Source of the DNA: Botryllus schlosseri | Taxonomy: Eukaryota | Reading direction: 5' to 3' | Assembly: GCA_051294905.1 (NCBI GenBank) | Contig: CM119373.1 | Span: 1,552,001 to 1,616,000 of the forward strand | DNA: 64,000 nucleotides | Shown here: in pieces, positions 644-62,900 of the stretch | How positions within the stretch are numbered: the first letter of the stretch is position 1 | How the letters are laid out: the number at the start of each line of letters is the position of its first letter | The notes under the pieces: generated by a model | What the model was told of the DNA's origin: nothing | Database searches by the model: none | The model's input: the letters and a program-made list of their open reading frames with translations, nothing else | Translations under genes and position numbers: made by a program

Positions 644-647
644 CAGG

Positions 648-686
648 GAATGTCTGGGTATTGCTGGAGTAGAAGCAGAGCTATCC
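648..686 (+). pseudogene. Possible 3' remnant of a B-type LRR exon
   Basis: Translates ECLGIAGVEAELS, which resembles the end of exon 41276-41443 (ECLGMGCKESQVS). It is followed by GCAGTA rather than a GT donor, and its 5' part is replaced by the tandem array. The match is short. Confidence 0.35.
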
Positions 687-5820: not shown

Positions 5821-6144
5821 AGGGATAATTATTTTCTTATGCGTGTGAGAGTGTAGAGTTTGTAAGCGTTATGCAAAGGGAGATTGCAAATGTGAACGGA
5901 GGATTCATCGCCGTAATTCTTGAATAGGCAACAAAACGTTGTTGTTTCACCCAACGAAGCTGCAAAATCAATGTAAAGACATACATGCCATACACGCCTA
6001 TACAGTGAATACATGGCTTACGGTCGCCACAGGCAGAAAAATATTTGCATAGGATTTAATTGGATAATTTAATTGGATACTTACTGATCGGGACTCTATA
6101 CTGTAGTTCCACATTATTTAATCGTTATAATTAGTTTGATTTTT

Positions 6145-14717: not shown

Positions 14718-15288
14718 CTTATGCGTGTGAGAGTGAAGTGTAGAGCTGTTTAGCACGTGAACGTGAGCAGAAGTTTCATATCCGGTATTTTCGAATGGGC
14801 AACACACCGTTTTCACGAATCTCAACGAACCCCCAAAATCATTGTAAATTCATACATGGCGTACTCGCCAATGCTTGCCTTACGCTCACTACAGGCAGAC
14901 AATCGTTTAAAGTTATTCTTAATATAAATAAGCCGCAGCATATAATTAAATACTTGCAGATCGTTCCACATAAATCCATCGACATAATTCAGCTGCATGA
15001 AGTCTATCTGCACGCAGTGTATCTAACCAATCGCTTCCACAATAGCATATCTTATATTGATGTTAATGTAAACTTCAAGTCAAGAGTATGGATGTTCAAA
15101 CCTGAATTTATCAGCTATAAATTTATAAATCCGAAAATATATAAAGCAGAACTTTATTGATGGAATGAACACTAGCAATTTTGATATCTGAAATCGGTTC
15201 ATCTAACAAACTTTTTGCTCGAATTCATAATCATACGTCGAGAATCAACATCAGTGACTGTTCAGTGTTCAGTGTCTCGTAATGGGAG

Positions 15289-15803: not shown

Positions 15804-15992
15804 AATGGGAGTGCAATTCTTCAACAAATATCAAAAACCATAACGTATTCTTTATGGCAGTCTAGACATAGAAATAGCCTATATAAATAGATTGATGTGG
15901 AAATTATGCAATTCATTTGATATGTCAAAACAATAATCCAACGTGTCGAGCGATACTGATATCTTGATATCTAATATAATGAAAATCTAAAC

Positions 15993-17212: not shown

Positions 17213-20200
17213 AAGAGTAGCGTACGGCCAGTGTTGCTGAATACAAATTCTGTAGGAGGAATTGGGTTCTGAGCTGTCGTAAGAAGTCGTCAGAAACAAC
17301 ATATACAAATGCGCGTGGTTGTGTTCGTGTAGTTTTTGCGCTATCACGAAGCAACTAACGATCCAGATTAAACGTTTAAATTCTAACCTTATCCAAGTCT
17401 CTATCATGGTCTCATGCTCAATCTTCTGGAATGATAGATACTTTTGTACTCAGCGCTTCTTTGGAAATTGTATCAATCATCACACCCATCTCTAATCTGA
17501 ACATATAAAGTGTCATCACCATGTTTTCATCTGCTATCACACTAATCGAATTTTTGAATTGTTCTTATGCTCTAATTTTAATTCTAATCTAATTCTAAAA
17601 TGTTTCTATGCTTCAATTTTAATTCCAATCTAATTTACGAATTGTTCTTATGCTCTAATTCTAATCTAATTTATTGTTTTCCTGAAAATGCCTATTTGAC
17701 CGCGGCATGTTGCAGCGAGTCCCTCTCGCACAGGGATATCCAGAGGCAAGCCTCTATCGCATCACTTACACCGTAAAGAATTAGTAGTTGTTGTGCGACG
17801 AATAATAGCCATACTGGCATATTAGCTTGTATGTTTGTTTTCTGGAACAATTGTGACGCATATCGCCGAATCATGTTATTTGTGCCATGATAATGAATGT
17901 TGCAATGTTCATTGATCTTTGCCTTTGGAACTCTTTTTGGACTACTTCCAGTCACGTATCCATTCATCATCTATATCTATCTCGTTTGCATACGACCACT
18001 TCAGTGTCTTTTGCTGACGATTTTCGAAGCTCGAGTTCAATTATTTAAACTGGGCTTTTCGTACGGCACTGCATACGCAGTGATCAGCTACTAACGATTC
18101 GATATTAGGGCTATCCAGACATGTTGCTAGGTGAAAGACTATCTCATCCTAAATATTGGCTTTGGGGACGCCCTATAGCCCTAGTTTTCCAAGCGTCTCG
18201 GTGTCGAGTGCACTGTACGTCATGGCAATATGCCTATTCATGCCAGCTGACTCTCCATCGATGGAATACTGTTGCCGTCGTTGAAGCTATTTCTGCTATA
18301 GCGAGGAATAGTGTTGTTGCGGACAGACGAATAGGTTTATTTAAAACAACAACAATAATAATTTGAAACTGAAATCAATTTACGCATTTCAAAATGCTTT
18401 ATTCGCGTTCTTCCAAATTCACAGATCAGATCGATGGTCGCAAGATACGACCTCGCGGGCCGCCTGTTGATGACCCCTAGTATAGTGCAAAACGAGCAAA
18501 GCTTGATATACAGACGTTAACCAATCTCTTGGTTATGAGACTTCACTGTGATTGGATATGAACTGAAATTTTTGCTGCATTTATCATTCAGAATTTCATT
18601 CAATTTCAAAGTTTTTCCGATTTCAGTAGCCAAATTCTGATGCTAATTATTATCTAATTTTGAAAAACCTGTGATGGTCTGATTATAATTCTATTCTAAT
18701 TTGGAAAAAAGACGTGTAGCTTTATTTCTAATTCTAATCTAATTTAGAAAAAATTGTACAGCTCTAATTATAATTCTAATATAATTAGGAAAAGCTTAGA
18801 AATTCTAAATTGTCCAAGTCTGCCACGTAAATGGTGTCTCATAAAAGCATGAGTGGGCCGTGAAGCAGGTCAGCAGCTACGGAATTTAAATGAAGCACAT
18901 TGGCCTGATGTAAATGTCCATAGTAGTCGACAAACCCCATGAATACCTCAAATGAAACAAACAAACGATTAAAAAGAGAGCATAGAAATACGCCAACTTA
19001 TATCGTCGTTAGTGCCACTGAGTTAGCGCTCCATAACTTTACTCAACAGGTAAATCATCGCGATTTTGCCAATTCCATTATTCGCAAATAAATTCGTTGC
19101 TAGAATATAAACCCAATGATCCGTGATATGATTTAATGTACTATTATGTATATATAATTGATAATAAAGTATTCAAGTGAAAATACGGACATGTGGCAAA
19201 ATTTTGAAACGAGTTGACAGATGGTCAGGCCCGTGAGAGATTTGAAGATTTTAATCCCACCCGAGTAGCCATTTGAGTTTGACAACCGTGCTCTAAGCTT
19301 AATTGCAATGACGAGATAGCATAATGGTATGATCCACGGCTGCAACACCAATTGGTTGCGGGTTCGAGTCTGACCGAGGTCGCCTCCAGAATTCCCAGCC
19401 AAGTGTTAGAGGTTTATATAGGGCTAGGCTCCTCTTCATTCACCTGATCGGCGCTAGCGATTTCTTAAAAAAGCCTAGAAGTGGATTTTGCTATGAGTGC
19501 TCTCAATATTGCAGGCCCTGAGTATTTTTCTGCACAGCGATCAATGTATATTTTAAAAATTAGATGCCTCGTGGCTTTGCATTCAGGACAGTTTGTTTTA
19601 CATGCAATCGAAATTTAAATCATTGGTAAACCAGAGTATATATTGCATGACATTAGGAGCCGGTGATTATGTCTATTACAACATTTGATATTCTCTATAG
19701 TAGCTGAGTGACGTAAAGACCGAGTGTCTCATTTCGATTTCCTAAAAGTGTTTATGAATACTGGCTGGGCACCGTTTAAACCCCAATACTGTCGTTATCG
19801 CGCTATAACTAGTAGATTAGTAATCATAAAAACTACATTAAGGTATGCTTTAAAGCTGCCAAACACAGTACACCTGCCGTCTCGGTGGATTCAATCGGAC
19901 GGATTTACATGCCAATATCCTAATGGCGACAAATTTTTGAAAGAGGCAGAGATTGCTCTCATTCCAGTCAACAGAATTCTACGTTGAAATAGGCCCCATA
20001 CATTTGTTACTCAGAAGACCGAGTTTCCAAATAATGTCAGGAAACTAGCTCATAGGTAATTTTACAAATTTCTATTGTGTTTGAGTGTATTCGATCAAAT
20101 GAAATCTAGAACATTCTAATCGACTCGAGGATCAATTCTCGATTCGGAATCGTATCATTCGAGCCCTCGATGTTGCCAAGCCACAATTGCAATATTAATT

Positions 20201-20301
20201 TGCTTGAAATGATGGCGAAGCCATCGTAGCATAGTAATGTGATACTAATAGTCTTTTACAGTTTACTGACAGAAAATTCGATTTCATTTTCGAAGCCTAG
20301 T

Positions 20302-21457: not shown

Positions 21458-24400
21458 CATTGGTGAATCTGAAATTTTTCGCAATTCGCGCGATATTGCC
21501 CGTTCCCATAACGTGACCACTCGTGATTTCGGTGCGTGTAGTAAGCGGATATGAAATATTAGATAAGTCCAGAGCTCAGCGGAAATGGACATAGATCTCT
21601 TAACATCAGTAGTTGGCGTCCAGCTAGTTCATCGCGACTAAGCCCTGGAATGCTGCCGTAGGCTATGATTCATCGAAATGCGGCCGTGAATAGTAAAAAG
21701 GTTGGCGACCCCTTGTTTACACCTTGGAAATGAATTCCAGCTAAGCTTTTCATTTAAGAGAGCTCGTTTGTCATGCACTTGAAATTCAAATCATTTAAAC
21801 TATTTTTTTATAATGGTGTCGAATCATATACAATCTGCCAGCGACTTCAATACTAGTTGACAATATGTAACAGTATTTTAATAATCTGTAATATGTATTG
21901 TGCTGCATCCGGAATATTTCGCGATCGGTATTTTTCGTTACATGTCGCTATATCTCCAATCGCAAAACCATGTATTCCATGGAGCCCATTGTAAAATGAC
22001 AACATGTAACAAAGTTTCTGTAAGCACTGCGGCGGGCGGTCATATTGTCAATATATATTATAGGATAATACCTCATGGTATAAATCTTATAGCCGGCTGA
22101 GTGAAGAAAATCGATTTAGTGTTTGATGCTTGACTCATATTTACTCGGGATCCAATTTCCTAGTTTTTGATCACCCCGCGGGCCACAGCGTCAATCTGGG
22201 TATTTAATGTATGTTTAAGTATGTCGTATTTGACGAGGTGAAATTGTCCGATTGAAGGTTAACCGAAATAGCTGACTGAGATTCCGCAAATATCGTGACA
22301 TTGTGATTTACAATTTTTTTAGCAATTTATGCGTGGCACGAATAAAAACCACATTTATAAATATTTTACTAGAACTGTCATTGTACATGGCAGGGAGTAC
22401 GCAACATTTGTCAAAATTATGAGAAATAGGCACCATAGTCGAATCCAGATTTTGGGTGTCATATTAATCAGTATAGTCTATTGATTGCGTCATTGCCCAA
22501 GTCAAAATAAAACAGCGTTGGATTTAAATTCACTGGTGGTACAGCGGTGGAGCGTAGCACTACAGTATTCACCATCTTAAATCAGCGATAAAGGTATGGA
22601 TAAAGGGATCAAAGATGCAACTGACCACACATTAAGGGGGCAACATAATGCTCAATCTTGTTATAACAACTTGCGTCGATAGCGAAATACCATGTCACGA
22701 GCTTATCATCTATTACTACCCCCTTGGACACGCGAATAATAATTTTCGCGTCTGTGGTTATAACCATGTCACGACGTTCCGAGTTACTCGGAGTCAACTC
22801 GAGTCATTTTCATCTTGTCAACTAGTCATTCCGAGTAATTCTGCGAAAGGTCGCCTCAAACTCAAAGTCACAATTTCCAGTCTCGAATCATATAAGGTTC
22901 ATGTTTTATCATCAAGATTAGGCTATTCCATGTGATAGCAGATCTTCCATCGCGTGGTAGCGTTTGAAAGTGATGCCATATACGAAGTTTGATCAGTAGT
23001 TTTATGTTTTTGGGCAAATTTAAAGTGAATGATAACTTTTCAAATCAGACAAAAAGAAATGTTGCACTTAACTGCTGCCAAGTATAGCCTAATTGGATAT
23101 CCAAAATTTTGACGTGGCCAAGCAAAATGTCCTCGTCGGCCGCGTGTTTGCGACCCAGGCTTAGAGCTTGCGGATTACTATTATCAAAACCATGCTGGTG
23201 TAAATAGAGAAAAGAATTTCCAGCTTTGGCATGAGGTTACTGGTCTATTGCGAATTAATCACAGAATATGAGGCAATACACAATTTACGATTTTAGACCG
23301 AAAAGTGAGCATTTCTCCCCAGACAGGTCTGTTCTGTAAGGTTGCTGTAAAATGGAAATTATGACGGATGGAGCTATGTCCAACAATAGTAGAGAAAGCT
23401 AGCGTACATGAAGTGTGACATAATGCTCATTCTTCACGCGGAATGCGGTCACTAAATGTCGCTAAAAAGTAGCTACAAATAACGACATGTCAATGCGCGT
23501 GTGAGTTCGCGTGTTTTGTGCTATCAAGAAACATCATGTCGATCCCCCCCAAAAAATCCTAAATCGAACCTAACCTAACCCAAGCCAAACTAATCTCTAC
23601 GCTAATATACTTTCATCAATTCTGACCTTCAATAATATTCACGACACATCGCACCGTAAATATTTTTACGATTACGTTCCGCAAAGAAAGATAACACTGG
23701 TCAACAAAATGAAGAAAAAAATGACAGAACATCTAGGAGGTGTTTCTGGGATTTTCAAGGTTGCCGATTACGAATATCACATCACATTTGTTTTTCCAGA
23801 TTGCCTCTAAAAAATAACATGTTTGTACCCCTAAAAAAGCTTCAAATCATTGTATTTACCCTTGAATATTTCACTTGGTAGGAAATAAATCTTTTTTTAC
23901 TTTTATGCTGAGCATAAATTTATAATGGACTAGGACACTCATGTCGTTATCAGTTATTCCATCAATATTAACATGACCTGATGCGAGAACTTCGTTAAAA
24001 AACAGTTTGTCAAGCCAAAAAATTGTTCTTTTGCTCGATGGTAATATATTTTATCTTGTAACCATCGGTCACTCTGCCAAGATGAAAGAGGTATATTAAG
24101 CTATCAAATTTGTCCCTGGAAAGCTTACCTTGGATATTCATATGCTTCTCATCTCTTTTCACTTTTAAATGAATAATTTTCCATGAAGCCAAAAAAGTGA
24201 GTATATCAAGTATCAATATCAAGCGAGAAGCTCAACTCTGGAATCTTTGATGGATCTCAGATTAGAATACGGGCCAAGGATGACAATTTAATATTAAGAA
24301 AGGTGCTCCTTGCATGGAATACCTTCCAGGATGTAGCATATAAAACATTTTGGACGATCACAAAGCACCCAACTACAAACAGTTGGTTCGAGAATTGGTA

Positions 24401-25249
24401 TCTGCATATGGAAACCTTGGACCAAACATGAACATTAAATTTCACTTCCTGTTCAGTCATCTTGATATATTCTTTGTTAATATTGTTGATTAGATCAGTG
24501 GTTCTCAACCAACGGTCCGCGGACCGGTGCCGATCCGCAACGACATTACTGCCGGTCCGCCAAGTATATTACAATGTTATTCCTTAATTTCAAGATGCAA
24601 TGTTGAAGGCTACAAGTACAGAACAGATACGAGCTGACTCATAGCTAAGGAGCGCAGTTTGCGCGATCGTTCGTTTTCGATTCATTCATTTTGAGCAGGA
24701 CCGTAACTGGGGCACTCCAAACCTCTCAATTGGAATGGGGCCGCGCTTGAAAACGGCCCACAATTATTTTGCAGATGAACATCAATCATAGCGTGTTTTT
24801 TTTTCAACATTTTCCAATTTCTTCGCGCGATTTAGTGTCACTGAACGTCTTGCTAGTTAGGTGCCCTTCTCCGAGAATTACGCATGATTTAAAGCAGGGC
24901 GAGCAACTTCTCCAGTCGGAGGGGCGGATGCAGGAGAATTAAGTACTTGGCGGGCCGGATAGCTGAATCGATACATTATTCGCCCATTTATCCACATATA
25001 CAAAAACTGAATCGCAAATCATGAATGTATTGTAACGAAAACAATGTCATTTCAAAGCCATTTCTAGGCGATAATGACAAAGACAATGTGGATGTGAGAA
25101 CACCATTGCCATACAGGCGCCGCACTTTCAACTTCTCTCTCATCAATCAACACATGGTGCAATCCTTAATGAAGACTTCAAGGCGTTCGATAAGCCCGGT
25201 ACCCCAAATTTACCAAGATATCAATTCATTAAGGTCGAGCACATCGTAA

Positions 25250-25472
25250 ATGCCGATAATGCAAGTCTTCCCGCTTCTACGAACTTACGCGTAAGCTCCA
25301 CTCTCGCACGCATTCTCGGCAATGTCCATTCTCAGTAATGGTTTTCTCGATATTGGTATAGACTGAGCCTCCGTGGCCCTAGTCTGCCGAGTTATTTGCG
25401 TGTGTGCGCAGCGTGCGAGAATGGAGCTTACGTGTAAGTTAGTAGAAGCGAGAAGATATGCATTATCGGCCT
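25250..25472. mobile_element. Small foldback MITE, Harbinger/Tourist-like (interrupted by a hAT in copy X, ~9490-10643)
   Basis: Imperfect inverted arms of ~60 bp (GCCGATAATGCA...CTCGCACGC / GCGTGCGAG...TGCATTATCGGC) flanked by TAA/TTA. Confidence 0.65.
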
Positions 25473-27723: not shown

Positions 27724-30700
27724 AGTTAAACCCACGGCCTTCGGCGCGTAAGACTGTTAACGAATCTTGGCGGTAGCACGTTTATCTGGACAATGCAATT
27801 TTACTAGGACTTAGCAGACTCACTACCATAATATCACATGGATGCCGTCAGGAAGATAATTAATTACGATCAAATCCCTCTAAATGTCACTCTCTAACAC
27901 CATATAACTGCAAACAACGGTTGCATAATTTACATTTCGGGTTTATTTCAATTTTTAAAGTTCACCGGTCCGCCAGACATTTTTTGAAATTTTACCGGTC
28001 CGCAAGGTGAAAAACGTTGAGAACCACTGGATTAGATGGAATAGAAAGGGGAAAGGTTCCAGCAATATGTTACAACAACATTAGAAGGAAATCAGTGCAG
28101 ATGCGACGGGCATATTATGGCAGGCTGCTGCTGGAACCTTTCGAAAAGCTGCACTAAATTGCTTACAACCGAAAATAGTGCAAGAACCAATTTTGATTTA
28201 AGACAGGTTATTAATATTATATTACAACTGATTATTTTGAATTTAAAATAGGTGGTTGGCATGAAACTGATACAACTAATGCAACAAAATTTGAGTATTC
28301 AGATAACTACCTATATATATGATTAGAGTTTATTTTTTGTAGGCTACATGATATCCGTAAAGTCTCCAATTATGATAAATCAACTACCCCGAAATATAAT
28401 TCCGTTGCTGTATTTTAATTTAAAACAGTCTTCAGCGTATCAAAATAACAAGTAAATTGAATTTATAAACTTTATATTGCGACCGAGCCGACTTTTTATC
28501 CCGCCCACACAGCGAAATTATGAGATTTTATTCCAAATAGCCCCATGGGTCGTCTCCATAAATAGGGGTCATTTGAAAAAACCAAGGTCATATTCGGAAT
28601 CAGTGCCCTTCAGAAACCTCAACACCACTTTTACTTTGTCTGCCTAAAAGTATGCGTTGACCAGTGTAATCAAGCCATCCCGATATTTGATAAAGCAGAT
28701 GAATAATATCTAATCCCAATCCTAAACGAACTTGTTTTATGATAACGCATTATTAGATACATTGTACATTACTAACTCACACAGATATATGGAACATTCG
28801 GATGATAGCTGGTAAACTTCCGCGCGCACGTAAAGGCCACACTAATAGCGCAAAGAGTGTGTATTCCTACCAGTATAGCACCCTTCATGTACGGGTGTGA
28901 ATATAAACCCATCGCGCACGGATCCTGAACCGATCTCAGAATGATACCGCGGCATAAATTGATTACACAATTTCAAAGCGAATTATACATGCACGAGGAA
29001 CGTAGAAAGGTATGCACATACACGCCTGTAGGCCGTAAGATTTTTGACCGCGATATAATCCCGAGTCAAGTTTTGTTTTCGTGTACCACCCATTTCTGCT
29101 CTTTTGGTGTGAATAAACTCGCTTTTCTAATAAAATATTCAGTTTAGGCACAGAACGCTTAGTACATCATGCCTGATAAATGTCAGTGTCTACTCTACCA
29201 ATTGTAAAGCAAAAGGTATCAAAGGCCATTGCATTTATTGATTCGATATACGTGTCATTCCATTGTGATTCAACGAACCTGACTAAAATACGAGGTCACT
29301 GCAAAGTGGTCGATTGTCGCTTAATTACGCAAAACTCGTTGTTATCATTAAAACTTTCTCTCTTTGACGATAAATCGGTGTTTGTCCGAATAGTAACGAC
29401 CGTAAGAGCATTCCAGGACTATTACTCGTGACGTTTTTCATTTCATCATCGCTCTCCACAAATTACTCAATAATATGGGATTCAATAATTATTTACTTAT
29501 GCGTGTGAGAGTGAAGTGTAGAGCTGTTTAGCACTATATCAAAATATATTTCACGTGAGCAGAAAATTCATATCCGGTATTTTTGAATGGGCAACACACC
29601 GTTTACACGAATCTCAACGAACCACCAAAATCATTGTAAATTCATACATGGCGTACTCGCCAATGCTTGCCTTACGCTCACTACAGGCAGACAATCGTTT
29701 AAAGTTATTCCTAATATAAATAAGCCACAGCATAGAATTAAATACTTGCAGATCGGAATATTATACTATATTGTTCCACATAAATCCATCGACAATAATT
29801 CAGTTGTATGAATTCTATCCGCGCGCAGTGTATCTAACCAGTCGCTTCCACAATAGCATATCTGAAATTGATGTTTATGTAAACTTCAAGTCAAGAGTAT
29901 GGATGTGCAAAACTGAATTTATCAGCTATGAATTTATAAATCCGAAAATATATAAAGCAGAACTTTATTGATTGAATGAACACTAGCAATTTTGATATCT
30001 GAAATCGGTTCATCGAACAAACTTTTTACTCGAATTCACAATCATACGTCGAGAATCTACATCAGTGACTGTTCAGTGTTCAGTGTCTCGTATAATGGGA
30101 GTGCAATTCTTCAACAAATATCAAAAACCATAACGTATTCTTTATGGCAGTCTAGTCATAGAAATAGCCTATATAAATAGATTGATGTAGAAATTATACA
30201 ATTCATTTGATATGTCAAAACAATAATCCACCGTGTCGAGCGATACTGACATCTTGATATCTAATATAATGAAAATCCAAACCAGTGGTTTTTAACCTTT
30301 TCTTCTTCAGCGCCCCCTTTCAAAAGTTGCCTGAGTCTTGCGCCCCCCTATTTTAAGGAATGTAGTAAAAACCAATGGGTAAGTGGTCGAAGTCCGCTTT
30401 TGGGTTTGGACTTCACTATTAGACCACTCGACTAATTAACGGTATAATTTTTTATGCTGTTTTTGGAATCCAATCCAGGTTGTTATAACAACCATCGGGT
30501 AAGGACTACGGGCCAATAGCATTTGGTTCGAGATCGATGGACACATCTCGAATTCTCCTCTGCGATTAGCAATACGGTGAAGAAAATTATATTGCTGGAT
30601 TTGTTTTATTGCTTTGTGGGACCATTTAATCAACTCAGACTGTGGTAGAGATTTGCTCACAATAAATTTAGTGCTGCTCTCAGATTCAACATGAATGCGG

Positions 30701-31146: not shown

Positions 31147-32615
31147 CCGTGCTGCAGGACAGCAGCTACGAAATTTAAATGAAGCACATTGGCCTGGTGT
31201 AAATGACCATAGTAGTCGACAAACCCCACGAATACCTCAAATCAAACAAACAAGCGACTAAAAAGGGAGCATAGAAATACACGAACTTATATCGTCGTTA
31301 GTGCCACTGATTTAGGGCTCCATAACTGTACTCAACAATCAAATCATCACAATTTTGCCAATTCCATTGTTGGAGAATAAATTCGTTGCTAGAATATAAA
31401 CCCTATGATCCGTGATATGATTTAATGCACTATTATGTATATATGATTGATAATAAAGTATTCAAGTGAAAATACGGACATGTGGCAAAATTTTGAAACG
31501 AGTTGACTGATGGTCAGGCCCGTGAGAGATTTGAAGATTTCAATCCTACCCGAGTAGCCATTTGAGTTTGACAACCGTGCTCTAAGCTTAATTGCAATGA
31601 CGAGATAGCATAATGGTATGATCCACGGCTGCAACACCAATTGGTTGCGGGTTCGAGTCTGACCGAGGTCGCCTCCAGAAATTCCAGCCAAGTGTTAGAG
31701 GTTTATATAGGGCTAGGCCCCTCTTCATTCACCTGATCGGCGCTAGCGATTTCTTAAAAAAGCCTAGAAGTGGATTTTGCTCTCAATATTGCAGGCCCAG
31801 AGTATTTTTCTGCACAGCGATCAATGTATATTTTTAAAGTTAGATGCCTCGTGGCTTTGCATTCAGAACAGTTCGTTTTACATGCAATCGAAATTTAAAT
31901 CATTGGTAAAACAGAGTATAAATTACACGACATTAAAAACTGTTGATTTTGTCTATTATGACATTTGAGATTCTATATAGTTGCTGAGTGACGTAAAGAC
32001 CGAGTGTCTCATTTCGACTTCCCAAAAGTGTTTATGAATACTGGCTGGGCACCGTTTAAACCCTAATACTGTCGTTATCGAGTGATCACTAGTAGATTAG
32101 TAATCATAAAAACTACATTAAGGTATGCTTTAAAGCTGCCAAACACAGTGGACCTGCCGTCTCGGTGGATTCAATCGGACGGATTTGCATGCCAATATCC
32201 TAATGGCGACAACTTTTTGAAAGAGGCAGAGATTGCTATCATTCCAGTGAACAGAATTCTACGTTGAAATCGGCCCCATATATTTGTTACTGAGAAGACC
32301 GAGTTTCCAAATAATGTCAGGAAACTAGCTCATAGGTGATTTTACAAATTTCTATTGTGTTTGAGTGTATTCGATCAAATGCAATCTAGAACATTCTAAT
32401 CGACTCGAGGATCAATTCTCGATTCGGAATCGTATCATTCGAGCCCTCGATGTTGCCCAGCCACAATTGCAATATTATTTTACTTGAAATGATGGCGAAG
32501 CAATCGTAGCATAGTAATGTGATACTAATAGTCTTTTACAGTTTACTGACAGAAAATTCGATTTCATTTTCGAAGTCTAATAAAAGTAATGTTTTACGAT
32601 ATTTTATCATTTTAG

Positions 32616-32783
32616 TTGAAAGAGCTCAGTATCATCGACAATTCAATGAATGAAGATGGATATGAAATACTCGTTCACATTCTGAAGCTGTTAGATTGCA
32701 AGAAATTGGTGCTCCAATATTGTTGTCTCACCAAGACTAAGTTGCAAGGAGTATTGAACGGATGTCGGGATCAAAATATCCAG
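32616..32783 (+). CDS. LRR (NLR-like) gene, A-type exon, copy Z (168 nt, phase 0/0)
   Basis: Acceptor TTTTATCATTTTAG and donor CAG|GTGCGT. Translates LKELSIIDNSMNEDGYEILVHILKLLDCKKLVLQYCCLTKTKLQGVLNGCRDQNIQ. Confidence 0.8.
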
Positions 32784-33541
32784 GTGCGTCATCATGAACA
32801 ATCCGTAATATCCAAGAAGACATGTCCCCAACGATTCGAAATTGTTCGTCATCCTGCTTCGTCTCAAAAACCATGCAGCATAAAATCGTTCACCGTTTGT
32901 TCTGGCGTTTACCAATACTCGTCGGAGGTAATTCGAATACCGAAGGCGTTTCGTATTTTGCAGCACAGAGAACCTTCTACATTTTAAAAATTGTTAACGA
33001 AGCGATAGAGTAGATATGATCAATATAGGAATATTCATGACATAAATCTAACTGGTGAGGCCGTTTTAGTGTTAGACGATGCGGTTCCATACACCTGTTG
33101 TCGTGGCATGGAATTTGGGAATTCTAGATAAACTGTTGCTGTTTCAAACGCGGAAAATAATTTGCAGCTCTGGTATGGCGTCCCTGATCTATAGCGAGGT
33201 AATTGGCTGAAAAGAGCCAATGTTAAATTTAGGATTTTAGGCCGAAAATTGGACACAATTTCATACTTTTAAGTTGTTTATCAATTTGGGTGGAGAGAGC
33301 TATGTCAATCACTGATTGTCCAATTGGGAGGTCAAGAATTAACAGCATGCAATAAAGTGACTAATAACAATTGGCTCACAGCATGATGCATCATTGTATA
33401 TAACTTGCCCTCAGTTTTCGAAGATACCCCTTGATCAACTCTACTAGTGAATGGGATCACATGGGCTGAGAAAGGATTCATTCTTGATAGGAATATGTGA
33501 AACTATTACCATTAAAGACGAAATTCATTAGTGAATCTGAA

Positions 33542-36841: not shown

Positions 36842-38041
36842 TACAGTGTACAGACATTTGTTATTCTCATGCGCATACGATGAACTATGATTGAAATTAA
36901 CGGGTGTGAGTATACACTATGACACACAAGACCTGAAGAATGCTGAAGTACCTCATTCTTATACCGCGGTATAAATCGAGTGCAATATTTTAATCCAAAT
37001 TTTGCATGCACGTAGGGTATATGACCTCGATATCATTATGACTCTGGTTGTGTTTTCATGTACCACGCTTTTCGGCCCCTTAGGTGTAAATACACACTAT
37101 TTTCGCTAAAAGTGCACTCGAATAAAATATGCATGTTACGCACAAAACGCGTAGTGTATTTTGCCCATTAGAAATCAGTGTCTACTCTACAAGTTGTAAA
37201 CCCAAATGTACGAACTGGCAGTGCATTCATCGATTCGATATCTCTATAATTCCATTGTGAGAACCTGACTAACCTGACTAAAATACGAGGTCACTGCAAA
37301 TTGGTCGATTGTCGCTTCATTGCGAAACATTCCTTATTTTCAATGAAACATTCTTTCTTTGACGATATAATCAGTGTTTTTCCAAATCGTAACGACCGTA
37401 AAAGCATTTCAGCACTATTATACGCGGCATTTTTCATTTCATCGTCGATCTCCACTAATTGCATATTATATGAAATTCGATAAAATATTCATTTATGCGA
37501 GTGAGAATCTAGAGTTAGTGATCATTATGCTAAGGTGAATTGCAAAATATGGTCGGAAGTTTCATCGCCTTTATTCTTGAATAGGCAATACAACTTTGAG
37601 AAGTCCATGCGTCTGAAGTATAATTATGTGGTCGTTTCCACAACAGAATGTTTTAAATAGATAATAACACGAACATCAAGCCAAGTGTTTAGATGTGCAA
37701 ATCAGAATTTATTAGCTATGAAAATTCTGTAACCGAAAATATATAAAAAGGAACGATATTTATCATGTTTCCAGCTATATTCGGATGAACTCTCGCAACT
37801 TTCGCATCTGATATCTTAAATTGGCTCAATAAACAAACGCTCTGTACGAATTCACATTCATATGACGATAATCAGCATATGGGACTCTTCAGTGCCTACT
37901 AAAAGGAGAGCACTTTTGCAATAAATATCACAAAACATAGCGAATTCTTTATTGTAGTCTGGACAGAGAGGTTGGTGTGAGATTGGTGTAGCAATTATAC
38001 AATTCGTTTAATACGTCCAAACAGTAATACACCGTGTCGTG

Positions 38042-41000
38042 TTTAACGCAGAGCGAATGTTTGTAGTTGTATAATTGTATATCTGACTCCAAGAAGGTTG
38101 CGTTTACAATTCGCTGCGTGTTTCTTCTTTTGACGGACCGGCGTAACCGGGCCGTACGGCCTTGTTGGCTGGCGTACCACGAAGCCTGTCTATTGCACAC
38201 GTATTCGATGGATCACACTGACGAATATATTTTGTTTCCGTCTCCACGACTTGTAACTTTATTGGATCACGTACGGCAATACAACGGACTTCCGAATCAG
38301 CGAAATATCATGAACCGAATGACCGTCTCTCATAGCCACGAGAGATTACATGCACACATTGTTATCTACGTTCACACGACAAAATATACGACTCACAAAG
38401 GTCTTATCGGGTCTCGGTTCAGGGAATTACGTAAGTCCACAACACTCCCTATTGAATATTATTAAAATGGCGTTATACCAATATACTCCGTTAAAAGTTC
38501 CCCCTTCCCACCAAAATAACTTGGTGTAAAAAAAACGAGTATATTGGTCAATATCTCAAACCTAAGGTCAAACAACATATGGACTGGGGCTAATCATAGG
38601 GACTGGAGACAGGAAACGATTTTATATGCAGGGGCAAAAGTAAACTAATGAAACGAAATACCATCCAAGCGTAGCAGCGTGGCAAGCGTGGCGAGCGTGG
38701 CGAGCGTGGCAAGCGTGAAACACTATTTTACATAACCATCTCGGAATGACTCGCAATATCATCGTTCCGTCATACCAACTGAAACTCAGATCAATAAGAG
38801 TTAGCATTCAACACAATCAAGAAATAAAAGACATAATATAACTAGCACCAAAAGCGGTACCATCAGCGACATTAAAGGTCACTTCGCATGTAATAATAAC
38901 ATGATATCATCAATACAATAAAAGAGACATAATAATGAGCCCAAAAGCGATACCATAGAGACAATCACAATCTCATTGCATGCAACAAAATACCATCATT
39001 AAACACAAATGCAGAACTAAAATATTAATAGCACAAAAGCGGGCATACACGAGCCTAACATTCTGATGTCCGCACATATTCCTACAACGCATACTTTAGC
39101 AACGAACGTCGGTGACCCCACCGTACATTCTACGACAGGAGTCACAACATGATGCAGCAATCCTGCATTTACATAACATATCACTGTATAAAGCGCAATT
39201 TAACCGCGTCTATCTTTACTCTACGCGATTCAACAATCGATGAAGCAGCAATCCTGCGTTTACACAACATATCAATGCATAAGGCACAATTTTCATCACG
39301 CATATCTTTATCCTACGCGATTTAATGCAACACGTAATCATTCAAATGTCTTGGTCTAACAATTCGTCTCCCTCTGGACGTATATCTTGGACTTGACTCG
39401 TTGAGAGTTCTGCCTTCATTACATGTTTGGGTCTTAGATTTGGATTCATGCCCATTATTATCGCGATCGACATCAACAGGTAAGCATTCAGATATACGCT
39501 CTCGAGACGCGTCACAAACACAACCCAGACAGTCGCTACCGCTGTCATCACAACTAGACGAAATTACATGTACGTCACCCGGATTTCCCGCGGAGTTTAG
39601 TACCACTCTGTCCGCATCAACGGGCGGAAACTGCCGAACAAAATCATCGAGCACGTCGTTATCTACATCAAATGGCGGAAAGTAACACCAGTCTGTTCAT
39701 GCAGACTACTGAAATACAAATCAACAACATTAGGCGATCAAAAAAACACAAACATCACTTAATACCTCAAAACAACACATACACGATATTATGACAACAT
39801 TAAAGGATACATTACATTGGGCATTCAGAAAACCGATAATATCACTCGCACGCAAACTAATTAGAAAGATACCGTTATGGGTATTTAAAAAAATCGAATA
39901 TTCACCTGCAATCATTTTATTCTAAATTGATATGAAACTTCCTAATTCATATCACGTAGCATTTAACATTGGTATATACCAACTGAACGAGAGTGTGCCC
40001 TATTTATTGTATTACATGCAAAGCAATGTTTGCAAATATCATGCACTACCGCGGTGCATATTTTCTCAATGATATACTCAACATAAGGGTATCGTCGTAT
40101 GGCAGAGGCCTAATATCTCTTCAAAAGGCTTGCAATACATCATCATTCATCACATATACATATCAAGCTATTCAGCTATTGGATGCATCATGGCATCGAA
40201 TAAATAGGGTAGCCTTCTTGCCACGGGTTTACCCGCACATATCTCTTATCAAAACATTATGCTATATAAGCACCTGCGTCCTACAGCTCTAGCAGCGGAG
40301 GATTTGACTCACAGGAAATGCGACCCCTACCTGGGTTTAGAAACCAATGATTGCAAGTTACTTTAAAAAACTATACTTTGCTAATATCCCAATAACAGTA
40401 GCCAACTATAACGTCGTAGTGCAAGAGAATAACATCGATCTACCTTACATTTTCCTAATCCGTGTGATGCATGCTTGGAGCACCACTGTCCGCAAATCTG
40501 CACAACTTCTGCGATTTCAGAGTATTTTCTGACACTGCAGACGTCTTCTTCATTGTTGTCTTCTGTCTGGCGTATTGATCGTCGAAAGCACAACCCCGCT
40601 TCATTTCTTCCTGGCAATAACGTCTCGTCGTTTTCTCTGAATGGTCTTTTGGTCTTTCTCGCCGTTGTACCAGGCGAATCTTTATATTGATTTCTTCGGT
40701 CAGCCGGTCGGTCTTGATTAATTGAACGTCGGAAGGTCAACCATATAACGCAGAGCGAATGTTTGTAGTTGTATAATTGTATATCTGACTTCAAGAAGGT
40801 TGCGTTTACAATTCGCTGCGTGTTTCCTCTTTTGACGGACCGGCGTAACCGGGCCGTACGGCCTTGTTGGCTGGCGTACCACGAAGCCTGTCTATTGCAC
40901 ACGTATTCGATGGATCACACTGACGAATATATTTTGTTTCCGTCTCCACGACTTGTAACTTTATTGGATCACGTACGGCAATACAACGGACTTCCGAATC

Positions 41001-41197
41001 AGCGAAATATCATGAACCGAATGACCGTCTCTCATAGCCACGAGAGATTACATGCACACATTGTTATCTACGTTCACACGACAAAATATACGACTCACAA
41101 AGATCTTATCGGGTCTCGGTTCAGGGAATTACGTAAGTCCACAACACTCCCTATTGAATATTATTAAAATGGCGTTATACCAATATACTCCGTTAAA
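38042..41197 (-). mobile_element. Young non-autonomous LTR retrotransposon with non-canonical TT...AA termini
   Basis: 454-bp LTRs at 38042-38495 and 40744-41197 (4 differences seen, no indels) and a 5-bp TSD TCGTG (38037-38041, 41198-41202). On minus there is a PBS-like TGGTTGACCTTCCGACGT (40743-40726), a PPT GGTGGGAAGGGGGAAC (38512-38497) and AATAAA within the LTR. There is no recognisable gag/RT. ORF 39322-39654 ends RYTSRGRRIVRPRHLNDYV, like Ty3/Gypsy pol C-termini. Confidence 0.92.
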
Positions 41198-41275
41198 TCG
41201 TGCGATACTGAGATCTAATATATTGAAAATGTAAATCACTGTGAATAATTATTGTAGAAATTGTATCTCCTCCAG

Positions 41276-47653: not shown

Positions 47654-48513
47654 TAGGGCGGTTTTTGTTTTGACATGTCAAAATTTGTCAAAATTTTGTC
47701 AAAATTGTAGCGTTAGGTCAAAATTCGTCAAAATTGTTCATTGAGTCAAAATTCTTTTTGACGTCTGCATTTCGTTTGTATGGTTGATTTGGCACTGTCG
47801 GTGAACGTATCATTTGATATTTCACAGCTTTTAGCCTACTTTACAGGCCTATCGTGGTCAACGGCTAATTTCCTGCTCATTGTGAATCATAAACGGTCAA
47901 ATAAAACAAATAGTAGACATGGTATTATGGTCAACGTACCGCTATATCCTAACAAAAGAAAAACTTCTTGGGCATTGCATCGTACTATATTGAGAAGCGC
48001 ATGATAAAAAATTGTGATGTAGACATCATTGTCAGAATGAAGCAACACGGTGTGTCACCAGCAGTATACGCACAACTTGAGTGTTGTCAGTCAAAAACTG
48101 CTGCTGTTGAACGTCCTTGGCAAGTTTCTCAGTAAGGACATGCACTTTCTACCCAAGAATGTAGGAGAGTATCTCTCGTTGTACTACATTTTCCTTCCAC
48201 CATAATACGTATTGTAACCACTGAAATTCTTCATATGGGCAGATTTCGTTAAGATATTGTTTTTTTCATGTAAAAAGTTGACTGTTTCTCAGCCAAAAAC
48301 GTTATTTCAGGCCAAACTACTTCGTTAGGACAGCCAGTTCCAACCAGAAATGAAAATAAGTGGTACAATTTTAACATTATGCGGGAAAACACCTAATTTG
48401 CATACGTTAGGTCAAAATTTGGTCAAAATTCAGTTTGTTTAGGTCAAAAAAAGTCAAAATTTCAATTTTTCAGGTCAAAATATTCTTTTTTTAGGTCAAA
48501 AAAAAACGCCCTA
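47654..48513 (+). mobile_element. Non-autonomous hAT-like element (family A), complete
   Basis: Termini TAGGGCG / CGCCCTA, perfect 8-bp TSD CTAATCAC (47646-47653, 48514-48521), and GTCAAAA subterminal repeats. Confidence 0.92.
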
Positions 48514-55715: not shown

Positions 55716-58541
55716 TTAGGCTCGTATTAAGCGTCTCCAACGCAGGCGGTCGTGGGCGTCTTCAGGCGACAGCCCGCGTTGCGCTAGGTCAGTCTCCATT
55801 GTCGAACGCCATGTTTTCCGATTCCAGCCACCTCTGCGCCATGGCTCCGTCGGAATGTGATTGATGATGGCGGCGGCTGGTTGCTCGTCTTGATGCCGCA
55901 CTAGATGGCCGATTAGGCGGAAGCGTCGTTCAGCTGCCAGTAGACGGCATGGGACCGTTCCTGTGAGCTCTCGCAATGCATTCGTGGATATATGCTCCGG
56001 ATGGTGAATGCCGAGTGCATAGCGGAGGAGTGCGTCATAGTTAGCGTTGAGCGTCTTAGCCAGCTTCTCTGTCAGCGCGAGTGCCTCTATTCCGTAGAGA
56101 AGAACCTGCTCGACAGTGGCACGGAAGATACGGGTCTTGAGCTGGGTTGAGGCACTTGAATGGAAGAGGCTATGTAGCCGTCTTGCCACGCCCCAGGCCT
56201 TTGCTCGCCTCGCCTTGAGCGCATTTCCAGAGTCGGCGACGTCAATACCGAGGTACACAAAACTCGTTTCGTACTTGAGATCGATTTCTCCCAGTTGAAT
56301 CGGTGTCGCGTTCTTCGGTAGAGCTGGTATGGCCAGAACCTCTTGGCGTTGATCTGGAGTCCAACAAGAGCGGCGGCGGCCTCTAGCTGGTTAATGAGGC
56401 GCTGTGCCGATGCGGTGTTCGGGGCAAGCAAGGCTAGGTCGTCTGCGTAGGCAAGAATACCTACGTGTATTGCCTCGCGAGTCGTACGCGTGCGCGTTCC
56501 TTGCCGTGGCCGCCATTCAAAGAAGTTCGTATTATCCGGGAAGGCCGTTCGTAGGACGAAGTCAAGGATGACCACGAACAGGAATGGTGCCAGGGTGTCA
56601 CCTTGAAGCACACCAGCCGAAGTGTTGAAATCTCCGCTTGGGCCGTCATCTGTTCGGACTCGCGCTCGTGTGTCAGTGTAGAGCGCCATAATGGCGTACG
56701 TTATCACCTCAGGAATTCCGTAGAATCCGAGGATCTCTGCCATGGCTGGGCGCGAGACCGAGTCGAAGGCTTTCGCGAAATCAACGAAGACGGCCACAAC
56801 ATTCTTTTCGCGTGAGCGACAGGTGTCAATGATTGTGCGCAGTGCCAGGATGTGCTCTGTAGTACCGCGAGATGGTCGAAATCCATTCTGAGCATTCAGG
56901 AGCTTGGTAGAGAGTTGCTCACGTATGCGAAGGAGCAATACTCGGTCGAACAACTTGGCAGCGGTCTGCATCAGGGAGATGCCTCTGTAGTTCGCTGGGT
57001 CACTCGCAGCGCCTTTCTTGTAGATAGGGACGATTTCGCTCTCGAGCCACTCAGGGGGCACCGGGCCGCCTTCTAGGACGCCATTCATGACGTCGAGGAG
57101 CATAGGTGCAACGCCCGAGGTGTAAGCAGCTGTTGGGATGCCGTCCGTGCCGGTGGCCTTGAATTGTGGTACTCCACGCATGGCTGTCTTGAGCTCACCT
57201 AGCGTGATCAGGGCTGTATTGATCGCAAGAGGATTTGCTGCTAGTGAAGGCGGTGCAACGAGCACATCGATGTCCGGTGCAGGTGTAGATAACAGGGTCT
57301 CGAAGTGTGCAGCGAGGTCTTCCGTACAGGCCTTCACGCGGGCCCTCTTGAAGCCAACTAGTTCACCGATGGCTTTCCAGGCTGCTCTTGATCGGCCTGC
57401 TTCCAACTCGTTTTCCACGGAAAGGGCAATAGCTTCGACTCGTTCCTTGCGAGCTGCGTCGTAAACGTTTGCAAGGTACAGAGCTGCCTCGTTAGCATCG
57501 CTATGTGCGTCCAGTGTTCCAGAGGTGTACGCAGCACGTCTGAGAGTCTTAAGGTTACGGCGTGCACTGAGCACTGTTGGGTCGGATTCCCAGGCTAATT
57601 TTGGACGTGGCTTGCTACGGGCCTCGCCGAGCGTTTCACGGGCTGCATCCTTGACTGCTGCTACAAGTGGCGCAAAGGCGGTCGGTATAGTATTTTGGAT
57701 CTCGAGGGCGTGGAGTGTGTGCATGGAAAAGACATTCATCTTATTTGCGTCCTTAAGATCGAACCAATTTGGTAGCGGATCCTTCGGTGTGCGCTTCGGG
57801 ATGAACGGGAGGTGTTCACGAAGCGTGGCCAACACCAAGCGATGGTCACTGCTGATCGTTAGCATGCGCACCGTTCGGCAGTTCGTGAAATGGCGCCGTG
57901 CGGGAGCATTGCAGCACATATAATCCAGCCGTGTGTTGCGTTGGCGCATACCGTCAAATGTCGTCCTACGATTCGGCTTCATAGACAAGTTGGCGTTGAG
58001 AGGAATGAGGTCGCAGCGGTCGAGTAGATTAGTAAAATGCTCCGAGTTGCTGTTCTCGTTGCCAACTGGGAAGCGAACTCGCTGCGAGCGCTCGGCCAAC
58101 GTGGCATTCATGTCCCCAAGCAGCATGGTTATGTCGCGCTGCGGGTAAGTTGATAGAATGCCTTCTAGTTGGTCGTAGAAAGCGAGCGTATCAGCTGGGA
58201 AGGCAGTGGTGTTCGGAGATGTTGGTCCATACGCACACACGAGGTGCAGTTTGCGGCGACGGAGTTGAATGCTGGCTGTGATAATGCGGCTGTTTATAAC
58301 GTCAATCTTTGCCTCAGCGTGGAAACGCTGGGATAAGATTAGACCGACGCCTCCAACTCCGCCTTGGTTGGCAGGTGATTGGATCATGATGATGCCTGCG
58401 CCTAGGTCTTTTTCGCGGAATGGTTCAGTGAAGTGTTGGCGATGTTCTTGGATTGCCAACGCATCAAGTTTGAGGTCAGTCACAAGTGCGGCAGCTTCTT
58501 CCTGACGCCATACAGAGTTTAGAGTTCTCGTGTTCAGAGTT
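55716..58541 (-). mobile_element. Near full-length RTE-type LINE (AP endonuclease plus RT), one frameshift
   Basis: The frame is open from 58540 (TLNTRTLNSVWRQEE...AIQEHR). EN motifs are LGDMNA, LDY and SDH; RT motifs are NYRGISL, QNGFR, FVDFAKAFDSV, GVLQGDTLAP and YADD. A frameshift at ~56340 (INAK/EVLAIP...FVYLG) joins ORFs 56087-58483 and 55716-56258. GC content is higher than the flanks. Confidence 0.95.
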
Positions 58542-59963
58542 GGCTAATTCCATTATAATTTAACAGGGGCTGTAATGCATACCCTCAGAATTGTCCAATA
58601 TTTACAAATGTTATTCTTTTTTGAATTCCAAGTTTATTAAAAAAAAAAAAATTGAAAAATGTTCAGCGGTTCAAAAGATATTGCGATTTAAAATCCTCTC
58701 GTCACTAGGTGGCGCTACTTTCAAAAATCTTTGAAATCGATATATTTCGCTTAAATGATGGTAGAGAACCAATTAAAATGTCCAATTAACCAATTCTGGG
58801 GCCAAGGAATTCAATAAAACCAACTGTTTCGCCCTAAACTCAATGAAAAAAAAGTTACGGATGAAAAAAAAAATGGGGGGGACGGGCTTGAAAATGTCTG
58901 TGGGATACGGCCTACACAAAAAAAAATTATTGTGAAATGTGCTTTTAAGGAGTATGGTTGATAAAAAGATTGATTTTAAATTTAATATTTATTCCACCAT
59001 GAAATATGCATTACATAAAAATTTCATGGTCCCAACCCATATTCCTGCTCACCGTAAATACTATTATCACCAGTCAAATATATAAATAAATTTATTTGTA
59101 TTGGTTTTTGAAATTTTTCAAGTAGAATCCGTGCTGAACCACCGCATCAACAATAATAGAAGCAAGTAACAAAAGACATATTTACAATAAATATGTTGAA
59201 AATGCATTTTGTCTCTTAGTATTGTCAAAAGTCAAAAATCCGAACATATTTATTGTTTCGTGTTTGGCATGCATTTTGGATCGTCGACTTGCCACATTTC
59301 AAGATTAATTGTAAATATGTCTTTTGTTACTTGCTTCTATTATTGTTGATGCGGTGGTTCAGCACGGATTCTACTTGAAAAATTTCGAAAACCAATACAA
59401 ATAAATTTATTCATATATTTGACTGGTGATAATAGTATTTACGGTGAGCAGGGATATGGGTTGGGACCATGAAATTTTTATGTAATGCATATTTCATGGT
59501 GGAATAAATATTAAATTTAAAATCAAGCTTTTTATCAACCATACTCCTTAAAAGCACATTTCACAATAATTTTTTTTTGTGTAGGCCGTATCCCACAGAC
59601 ATTTTCAAGCCCGTCCCCCCCATTTTTTTTTTCATCCGTAACTTTTTTTTCATTGAGTTTAGGGCGAAACAGTTGGTTTTATTGAATTCCTTGGCCCCAG
59701 AATTGGTTAATTGGACATTTTAATTGGTTCTCTACCATCATTTAAGCGAAAAATATCGATTTCAAAGATTTTTGAAAGTAGCGCCACCTAGTGACGAGAG
59801 GATTTTAAATCGCAATATCTTTTGAACCCCTGAACATTTTTCAATTTTTTTTTTTTTAATGAACTTGGAATTCAAAAAAGAACAACATATATAAATATTG
59901 GACAATTCTGAGAGTATGCATTACAAATCTCAAAAAATTTGCTAAATTATAATGGAATTAGCC
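58542..59963. mobile_element. 1.42-kb foldback (palindromic) non-autonomous DNA element
   Basis: Termini GGCTAATTCCATTATAATTT / AAATTATAATGGAATTAGCC. Arms ~58542-59188 and ~59308-59963 are near-identical inverted copies around a ~120-bp spacer. No coding sequence and no matching TSD (TT / TA). Confidence 0.93.
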
Positions 59964-62900
59964 TACTGGATTCAAAAACTATTCGAAAGAATCCACAACA
60001 TTGGCAGCTCCCGACTTTTCTAGCCTGGAAACTCCCCTAAACGAGTCTGTCAGCAGCTCGGGAAGTCATTTGAACGAGACCAGCAGTTCAATCTGTGATT
60101 CTACTCTGTCCTGCAGTTCAACCTGTGATGCCACTTGGTATTATTCGTTTGAAGTGCCATGGCATTCTTTTCCCAAAAGTCTGATGAAATGCTGCATGGA
60201 TAAGGAGATTCCTTCTAATGCTGAGCGCAGGCAGATGATTCGAATCCTGGCTGATGCCATAATGAAAGTGACTCGCTATCCCCCAACAAAAGCTTTGGAG
60301 GCCATTGCTAATAAAGTTATATCAAAATATCCGGATTCGTTCTTGGACAAAACGTATGGTGTTGTCATCGGAAGTGGCCATGAATCTCTCTTGCACCAAC
60401 TGCAATATCAAGTCAGCAATGAACGTAAACCGGCCAAGTCTAAGAGCACCTCTGGGAGTATTGACAATTCAAGTGGCATAAAAAGGAAAAACAATGACAT
60501 CTCAGGATATGATTGCCTTAACTGGTCACCTGCTATTGATGCCGATAAAATGGAAATAGACCAGAAATGTCTTATCGAAGAAAGCAGAAAGGCTGTTCCT
60601 GACAGAGAGAGAGTGAAAATGCTAATGGAAAGCACATATCCATTGCAAAGAAAGACAATCAATCAACCTGCTGCGGTATCAACAATCAGTGAAATGTGGC
60701 CCTTTCTCTTTGAAGTTGGAGTTCATGTTCCAACATTATGGTATTCTCACTGGGACAGAAAATTCCAAGCAATTCTTAATTCGCAAGATGGACAACAACT
60801 GGCCTCGCATTCAAAAGTAAGCAAGATTATAATTCCACGATTTTATAATAAATAATTAATGAGTTAGTCACCGTAAATACTATTTTATTCAAATCCCAAT
60901 TTTTCTACTGCAATAACTTCGCTTCTATACACACTATACTAGCATATTTCAAAGACAATTATATCAACGAGATACCTGGTATCTTTGCTCTCATTTTAAA
61001 TAAATGCTAATTGTACTCTTCGCAGGACATTGAAAAATATGACGGTGCAGAAAGTACAGAACACGCTGTCAAGACTTTCAACTATATCCGAGATAACAAA
61101 GTCAGAATCATATGCCTCCTCTCTTGGCGTCCTCGAACTGATCTGTGCGTTCTTTGACGAACCAGCCTCTCAATTGTTCAAAAGAATGGTTAGTATTAAA
61201 TTAGCCTCAAAACCTATTCTGTGAATGTCTCCAATGTAGTTCTGTTCTGTTGTTGGTAATTACTTTGTTTAAAAATCTTGTTGCTGCTTGTCCTCAGTTA
61301 AAGATTGTCACTACTCGAAAATGATATTGGAATTGCTCACACATACATATCTGTTTTCAGGAAATTGCTCAAGATTTAATGACAGATGCGCCGAACCACC
61401 CATTTTTGATTACAATCGGTAAGTATTTATGTACATAAAGTAGGGGTCACGAAGAGTATAAAACTGTGTCGCGTTCAGACTGATGACTAACTGACTGTTA
61501 CTGAGTTTATTGCAAATATAAAGTCATCACGGTTTGCGCGATATCTTATGGATTTGGGCCGGGCGTATTGATTTGAGCCTCAAATTGAATTAAGTATTAA
61601 ATCATTTCATGTTGAAACCAGTTCGTAGTGTAAAAATGATTGCCCACCCCTGGTATTGTCAGTAAGTGACATGCACAGAATAGCGGCATAAGTCTCGATT
61701 ATGAAAAATGTGTCCGGGTTTGTATTGCACAAGTCGGTTTGATATGAATGTAAAAATGGTCTGATTTTTGGTTTCTCTGGAAATTTGTTACCTCCGCGGG
61801 TGTGCTTGGTGAGCGTGGTGTAGAGATAGGGAGTGCGAGCAAGTTGGTACCACTGATAAGACAGTCACAGGTACTCACTATCTTGTCAATAGTTATGAAA
61901 ATGAAAAACTTCCCATAACTACTTTACGAAAACTGAACACTTGAAGGTCAGTAGTTCTGCCCATCACTGTTTCGTACAAGCGGAAGTAGTCAAATGCCAC
62001 AACCACTAGAATATAAGTAGCTCAAGTAGGCAACATTGGAAAACCTACTTGAGTATGCCAAAATAATAGATATAGATATACTTGATTACAGACCAGCGCC
62101 TCAGGTTATCTGCACAGTCTCTATTTCATAACCTAGCCAATGGCGTTAAATGTGCTGCATACTAACAATGCATTTTTGTGTTAGTCATGGATCCTGAGAA
62201 GATAATTAACCTTATATTGATGCCTTGCTCTTCTGAAGTGCCTACTAGCACTACACTCGAGTGGTTGGATTTTTACGCTTCTTCTACTCGTAATTGAGTA
62301 TAAATTTATGACAGTAGCCCTACATCTAGTTGAGTAGCAGCGCTGACTACTTTACAACTTTTGTTTATTTTCAGGCTCATCGAACTACAATGTGAAGGAG
62401 TTCGTGGTAACTGCTGAAAGATCAATGATATTCACCACGGACTCCTACGTTGCTTTGGCGTATCTGTTCGTCACATTCTATGTTTTCAACATGGAATACC
62501 CGAGCGAACTGACAGCCACGTTGGAGTTTATGCAAAGGTAAACTGAGTGAGAGTTAGACTATCAAATGTCAACCCGTAATGGCAATGACTGATTATGTTT
62601 CTTCGCTCGGCTCAGCTGCTTGCGCTCACTGCTGCGCAGTGCAAAGGCACCTTTATTGGTGATCTCACAGCTGGCAACTGGGGCGCAAAATATTAATGAA
62701 TCCGGTCTTAACGAAAAGCTAGTGTAACGGTGATTTCTAAATTAATAATTAAAATGCGGTATGGGCACTAGAAATGCCTTAAAATCACCTTGAAAAATCT
62801 GACATCTGCATTATTTTAAACAATCAGAGCGCTGCAACACATTGACAATAACAATTACCTATTGAGGTGCTCTGCTTGCTTATAACAATCACAATTTAAC

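Follow-up and report, generated by a model that had tools for sequence, protein, structure and literature searches.

A non-autonomous LTR retrotransposon with TT...AA ends in Botryllus schlosseri

Introduction

Can an LTR retrotransposon be inserted by an integrase, and amplified, through ends other than TG...CA? Retroviral-type integrases nearly always use TG...CA ends. The question is raised by an element in a 64,000-nucleotide stretch of the Botryllus schlosseri genome (this whole stretch is called the window below), whose LTRs start with TT and whose two ends joined to host DNA form the pair TT...AA. An earlier note on this DNA had proposed that the integrase of the family joins AA-3' ends. 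Here we examine the boundaries of the element, the state of its ends in public sequencing runs, its coding content and its likeness to known systems, and we weigh the explanations for its termini. The reason why LTR elements retain TG...CA has been stated to be poorly understood (10.1101/137141, PMC5659011); these sources, like the other papers cited below, are represented by the passages covered.

Results

An LTR element bounded by TT and AA

The element occupies 3156 nt of the minus strand (41197-38042) in an LTR-PBS-internal-PPT-LTR layout. Its features, and the two sites used as boundary controls, are the following.

41198..41202, no strand: upstream copy of the target site duplication (TSD), 5 bp, TCGTG on the plus strand (boundary-repeat check)
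40744..41197, minus: 5' LTR, 454 nt, starts TTTAACG (joined), ends CGTTATA (internal; template of the next round)
40960..40965, minus: putative poly(A) signal AATAAA, one per LTR, at LTR position 233 (38258-38263 in the 3' LTR)
40727..40743, minus: primer-binding site (PBS) TGGTTGACCTTCCGACG, whose match to tRNA-Trp(CCA) is bulged, from complementarity to the tRNA 3' end
38496..40743, minus: internal region, 2248 nt, mostly closed frames (ORF list, Pfam)
39322..39696, minus: 124-codon open frame with the end SRGRRIVRPRHLNDYVLH (ORF list)
38498..38509, minus: polypurine tract (PPT) GGGAAGGGGGAA, 12 purines, then a 2-nt spacer CT ahead of the 3' LTR
38042..38495, minus: 3' LTR, 454 nt, starts TTTAACG (internal), ends CGTTAAA (joined)
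38037..38041, no strand: downstream copy of the TSD, 5 bp, TCGTG on the plus strand (boundary-repeat check)
15942..15958, plus: paralogous empty site 1, boundary control (flank comparison)
30232..30248, plus: paralogous empty site 2, boundary control (flank comparison)

In minus orientation, both LTRs start with TTTAACGGAG. The 3' LTR terminates in CTGCGTTAAA and the 5' LTR in CTGCGTTATA, which is followed directly by TGG. Re-reading the sequence thus bore out the earlier description that none of the four ends is TG or CA, and no candidate canonical CA lies within 10 nt inside any LTR end. The LTR pair (41197-40744 and 38495-38042) is identical at 450 of 454 positions; the number of differences, put earlier at about four, is exactly four (LTR positions 95, 371, 407 and 453). 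This divergence of 0.9% indicates a young insertion, whose age would be lower still if part of the LTR differences date from its birth.

The boundaries are fixed, as had been claimed, by the TSD and the empty sites. CACGA (TCGTG on the plus strand) on either flank is the sole 5-bp direct repeat among boundary placements within ±8 nt, six of which give repeats of at least 4 bp. At both paralogous empty sites a single 5-mer, TCGAG, with one mismatch to the TSD, stands between the same flanks, so TT and AA are part of the element. Together, the outer ends TTTAACG...CGTTAAA make up a perfect terminal inverted repeat of 7 bp, and the U3-side TTTAACG also occurs internally, after the PPT. No further copies of the LTR or the internal region were found in the 64-kb window; five other T.TAACGG-like matches in it proved on inspection not to be LTR ends.

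Non-CA ends across the family

Twenty public runs from eight studies of one and the same organism each contain part of the window. Four of the 24 runs listed were compared over 37800-40743, an interval with one LTR: X1, which may be the source sample, and X6, X9 and X24, which belong to other studies. The comparison rests on the 40 best-supported of 305 differences, on 12 of 29 junctions and, in a third table, on the entries listed ahead of 487 more. In X1, the summed contig depth, which is not a copy number, is 8.88 in the flank bin adjoining the element, 14,000-68,000 in the LTR and 620-9,200 in the internal region, and X1 and X6 both have depth in every internal-region bin. This shows that the family is high-copy and that the internal region is common to other copies.

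All six LTR/PBS junctions among the 12 of 29 listed are non-CA. The form CGTTATA-TGG is found in junction contigs of X1 (depth 133.7), X6 (618.9 and 259) and X9 (26.4), and CGTTAAA-G-TGG in a contig of X9 (126.7), again among the junctions listed. The TA end of the 5' LTR is a common family state and not a private mutation. In X24, at least 11 RNA reads run past the terminal AAA at 38042; they match the element up to that point, and what lies beyond it is sequence that the window does not contain (agreement 0.68). On the U3 side, an X6 contig with a depth of 1600 aligns up to its last letter at 38494, which is LTR position 2, and the entries listed give no sign of G at this position. Among the best-supported 40 of 305 differences, near-fixed ones occur at 38449, 38565 and 38571 and none at 38494 or 38043. 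At least eight near-fixed LTR differences, counted among the same best 40 of 305, set this copy apart from most others, which indicates that it belongs to a minor sublineage.

Non-CA ends are an inherited trait of a multi-copy family, not the product of decay or assembly error. That the ends are both family-wide and joined by an integrase we regard as very probable; AA ends flanked by a TSD are proven for one copy only, and there could be a minority TG...CA subfamily among the entries beyond those listed. TG...CA ends in most copies, the outcome that the earlier note had named as contrary to its reading, were absent among the entries listed from the four runs.

Priming and coding content

The tRNA-Trp 3' 12-mer listed for metazoan Gypsy elements is TCGGGGTCACCA (PMC13524379 supplements). 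Set against this 12-mer, which comes from PMC13524379 and is not the host's own tRNA, the PBS of the element is bulged, and a PBS variant in X9, TGGTGACC, is complementary to tRNA-Trp at 8 of 8 positions. At least three PBS spellings occur within the family, with 1-nt bulge differences relative to tRNA-Trp (40727-40743). The 64-kb window holds no tRNA genes. Self-priming is not supported, the longest complement of the PBS region inside the element being 7 nt.

Pfam recognised no family in any of the three longest minus-strand internal ORFs, and the longest frames are of 120-124 codons. With cis signals present and without a recognisable coding domain, the element is non-autonomous. An LTR retrotransposon inserted by an integrase has two direct LTRs, a TSD of 4-6 bp, a PBS directly after the 5' LTR and a PPT ahead of the 3' LTR; all four are found here, and the TG...CA termini of canonical LTR elements are missing. 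The tail SRGRRIVRPRHLNDYVLH of the 124-codon frame (39696-39322) is one that we take to be typical of Gypsy integrases, and the frame probably represents a Gypsy-type integrase tail, which we treat as a lead only. It falls in an Atlas cluster in which 75% of members carry Integrase_p58_C, at a score of 0.80 that is below the reliable range; all Atlas leads for the tail ORF score at most 0.82, and there was none for the frame after the PBS. When the 124-aa frame was compared with longer proteins by word index, 0 of 94 candidates were retained, and phmmer against 1.84 billion representatives gave a single, spurious match (E 8.4e-4) to a bacterial-type Ig/cadherin repeat protein. The element probably belongs to the Ty3/Gypsy type, an assignment based on the tail motif and the weak Atlas lead in an element without pol.

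The 3' non-coding part of the element (38590-39325) is made up in part of tandem-like units of ~91 nt (39149-39325 and 38823-38946) and a 10-nt repeat, and contigs of other family copies skip 40-95 nt within it.

Search for a helper

No autonomous partner was found in protein searches or in scans of viral contigs and metagenomes. Of the pattern scans of viral contigs, one gave 0 matches and another a single chance match, inside a bacterial-type tRNA-Arg. Of those of metagenomes, one gave 0 and another two chance matches, both within an open frame that has 67% GC and no LTRs. The proposal that the family's own integrase joins AA-3' ends is thus upheld in one part, as both joined strands are AA-3' with an exact 5-bp TSD, but not in the other, as the element encodes no integrase and no partner was found.

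Surroundings of the element

Large segmental duplications with 88-96% identity span 6914-38039 in a tandem gene cluster, examples being 7424-9603 with 23178-25363 and 18858-20299 with 31147-32579; a homologue search with a leucine-rich, exon-like short frame in this cluster (32616-32786) found none. A non-coding segment at 47655-48510, with related copies near 3589-4393 and 6132-6740, has terminal inverted repeats TAGGGCG...CGCCCTA and the 8-bp duplication CTAATCAC on both sides; it resembles a hAT-type MITE and contains internal GTCAAAAT repeats. A non-LTR retrotransposon remnant on the minus strand (12932-14718) has an endonuclease (PF14529) soon followed by a frame that looks RNase H-like by eye, and its RT region seems to be missing. 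Also on the minus strand, a LINE at 55716-58543 encodes endonuclease and RT (PF03372, PF00078) in an 818-codon frame and has about 55% GC against 39% in its surroundings. On the plus strand, a 297-codon open frame at 59962-60855 has 0 Pfam matches.

Comparison with known LTR ends

The rGmr1/Sushi-type metazoan Ty3/Gypsy LTR motifs are TGTNANR...CGTNACA (PMC3601003 Table 3). The element, which is without pol and is likened to this type by its ends, shares with it the terminal 7-mer except for position 2, AATAAA in the LTR, a PBS and a PPT, but differs from it in the penultimate joined position, which is T/A and not G/C at either end. The ZAM-group errantiviruses of insects (AGTTAYRK...TAAYT, PMC3601003) are also animal Gypsy-type elements with ends other than TG...CA; however, their terminal base is changed too (AG...TT/CT), whereas our element keeps the terminal T/A and is changed at position 2 alone.

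In plants, seven non-TGCA motifs have been reported (10.1101/137141), TG...TT and AA...CA ends are documented (PMC5659011), and lotus Copia, in which more than 25% of elements have non-CA ends, shows eight such end types, always with a purine in second place (PMC9804982). The plant Copia elements TARE1 (TA...CA), Tos17 (TG...GA) and AtRE1 (TA...TA) and the TGTT/AACA families resemble the present family in their heritable, amplified non-CA ends, and AtRE1 also in the symmetry of its ends. Plant non-TGCA elements differ in being mostly Copia; in the passages covered, TT...AA is in none of their lists, and the AA of AACA stands at the 5' start. An annelid pipeline gave the motifs TGAA and TTAT (PMC8220671). 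These LTR candidates are likewise from invertebrates and begin with TT or end with AA, but the two halves are in different elements, TTAA is not among them, and they are pipeline output only, with no family-level validation in the passages covered.

The literature searched, including the passages covered of PMC12477816, PMC4139406 and PMC3286476, contained no TT...AA LTR family; Repbase, Dfam and most subscription journals were outside its scope. Non-CA ends as such are already known, and the TT...AA pair is a new variant as far as this literature goes. The earlier note had called exceptions to a terminal CA rare. They are commoner than it implied, as the lotus Copia elements and the ZAM group illustrate.

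Discussion

In reverse transcription, the 3' LTR of the donor provides both U3 starts and its 5' LTR both U5 ends, so the four ends represent two inherited sites, the U3 start and the U5 end, each copied twice. The argument from four ends made earlier is right in that all are non-canonical, but it has to be reduced to these two sites, and host DNA was joined to the outer two ends only, with AA-3' on each joined strand.

The reading that we prefer, and to which as a whole we give a probability of roughly 0.55, is that of a non-autonomous, probably Ty3/Gypsy family with heritable TT...AA attachment sites and a co-adapted helper. The element RNA would be packaged in trans by the helper and primed by tRNA-Trp, which would yield linear DNA with about 2 extra nt past each AA, namely CT after the PPT and, in the AAA-G-TGG form, G plus the first T of the PBS. 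HIV-1 has the same spacing in CA-G-TGG. After trimming the extra nucleotides, the helper integrase would join the AA-3' ends to target DNA at a 5-bp stagger. At the attachment sites TT...AA would have heritably replaced TG...CA, and U5 would also have a TA variant; as the ends equal the rGmr1 motifs except at position 2, the ancestral ends were probably TGTAACG...CGTTACA. In the penultimate position the helper integrase would prefer A (or A/T), and the helper's own element would probably have the same ends. Because the U3 start and the U5 end are inherited separately and yet both changed with a perfect inverted repeat, a helper integrase that prefers the new base is the most likely explanation. 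Mutating CA abolishes HIV-1 3'-processing in vitro (PMC2615046), so that repeated insertion of AA ends would imply a different or relaxed recognition. A more far-reaching form of the argument, that in an animal Gypsy lineage the recognition by integrase shifted from CA-3' to AA-3' at both sites and that autonomous TT...AA elements are missed by motif-based finders, is tentative, and we place it just short of even odds.

Could the unusual ends belong to this copy alone, or result from a wrong reading of the element? It might be suspected that a single copy of a TG...CA family has decayed, undergone gene conversion or been misassembled, as this copy is unlike most others in the LTR differences described above and the reads listed include none over its own two flank junctions. 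This explanation is largely refuted and very unlikely: contigs of X1, X6 and X9, from different studies, have TA or AA at U5, the RNA reads of X24 have AAA, and no fixed difference was seen at 38494 or 38043 among the best 40 of 305. The earlier judgement that independent decay of the four ends is implausible is also sustained, with p about 4e-10 at the divergence of the LTR pair. It is scarcely credible that the boundaries or the class are wrong, with CG...CG ends in a piggyBac-like TTAA duplication, TA...TA ends plus extra bases, or a tyrosine-recombinase retroelement. Shifting both boundaries 5 nt inward does give a 4-bp TTAA direct repeat, and trimming of 2 nt at the TA-TGG junction would leave a TA-3' end. 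However, the TTAA repeat is an automatic consequence of the palindromic inverted repeat, the empty sites are without the TTAA expected of a piggyBac-like insertion and also without TT or AA, TTTAACG is present after the PPT internally, and the PBS, PPT, direct LTRs and 5-bp TSD fit integrase insertion.

The main alternative is a serious one, although we consider it less likely than not. Here an ordinary TG...CA integrase would have amplified a non-autonomous lineage in which two point changes (U3 G to T, U5 C to A/T) had appeared. Such a tolerant integrase would need only the terminal A and subterminal TAACG/CGTTA, and the amplification would resemble that of tomato TARE1, which reached 354 copies after a single terminal mutation, with hitch-hiking as the proposed route (PMC3701649). 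Lotus Copia elements with differing ends group with TGCA elements (PMC9804982), and the CsRN1 3' motif MSYYAMA admits A or C at the penultimate position (PMC3601003). The polymorphism of U5 between TA and AA fits tolerance as well as it fits a new preference. Against this, the preferred base must have been lost in mirror-image fashion from two separately inherited sites, in competition with helpers that have CA ends. Among the junctions listed there is no CA, and lotus ends always have a purine as second base and C, G or T as third (PMC9804982). On balance we favour a co-adapted helper over a merely tolerant one.

The two U5 ends of this copy invite a further question. Standard replication gives identical U5 ends, and here the 5' LTR ends in TA and the 3' LTR in AA, both of which are family states. 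A systematic asymmetry, in which most copies have TA at the 5' LTR/PBS and AA at the joined 3' end and TA is rarely or never integrated, could arise if minus-strand synthesis began on a co-packaged AAA-G-TGG RNA and switched template within U5. We think both the asymmetry and this route unlikely. This copy shows exactly the expected TA(5')/AA(3') arrangement, the final 84 nt hold three of its four LTR differences (post hoc P about 0.02), and, among the entries listed, TA-TGG dominates the DNA junctions while the loose end of the RNA is AAA; but n is 1, P is about 0.21 when the whole putative U5 is counted, and one post-insertion T to A change explains this copy too. Moreover, a family-rare variant at LTR position 324 is present in both LTRs, which excludes simple priming in trans with the whole U5 supplied by a typical member. 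The boldest form of the idea, in which a second RNA supplies the joined U5 AA through a template switch and 5' and 3' ends differ systematically at birth, is a shade less likely again. If template switching at birth were true, ages estimated from LTR divergence in this family would be overestimates.

With its symmetric ends and high copy number, the TT...AA family provides a natural experiment on the strictness of the TG...CA rule. As the earlier note expected, finders that rely on TG..CA may miss the family; the LTR_retriever motif library, in the form given in the passages covered of PMC8220671, does not include TTAA, so TT...AA families may be under-annotated. A comparison of the helper integrase with that of its nearest TG...CA relative would make recognition of the penultimate base directly testable.
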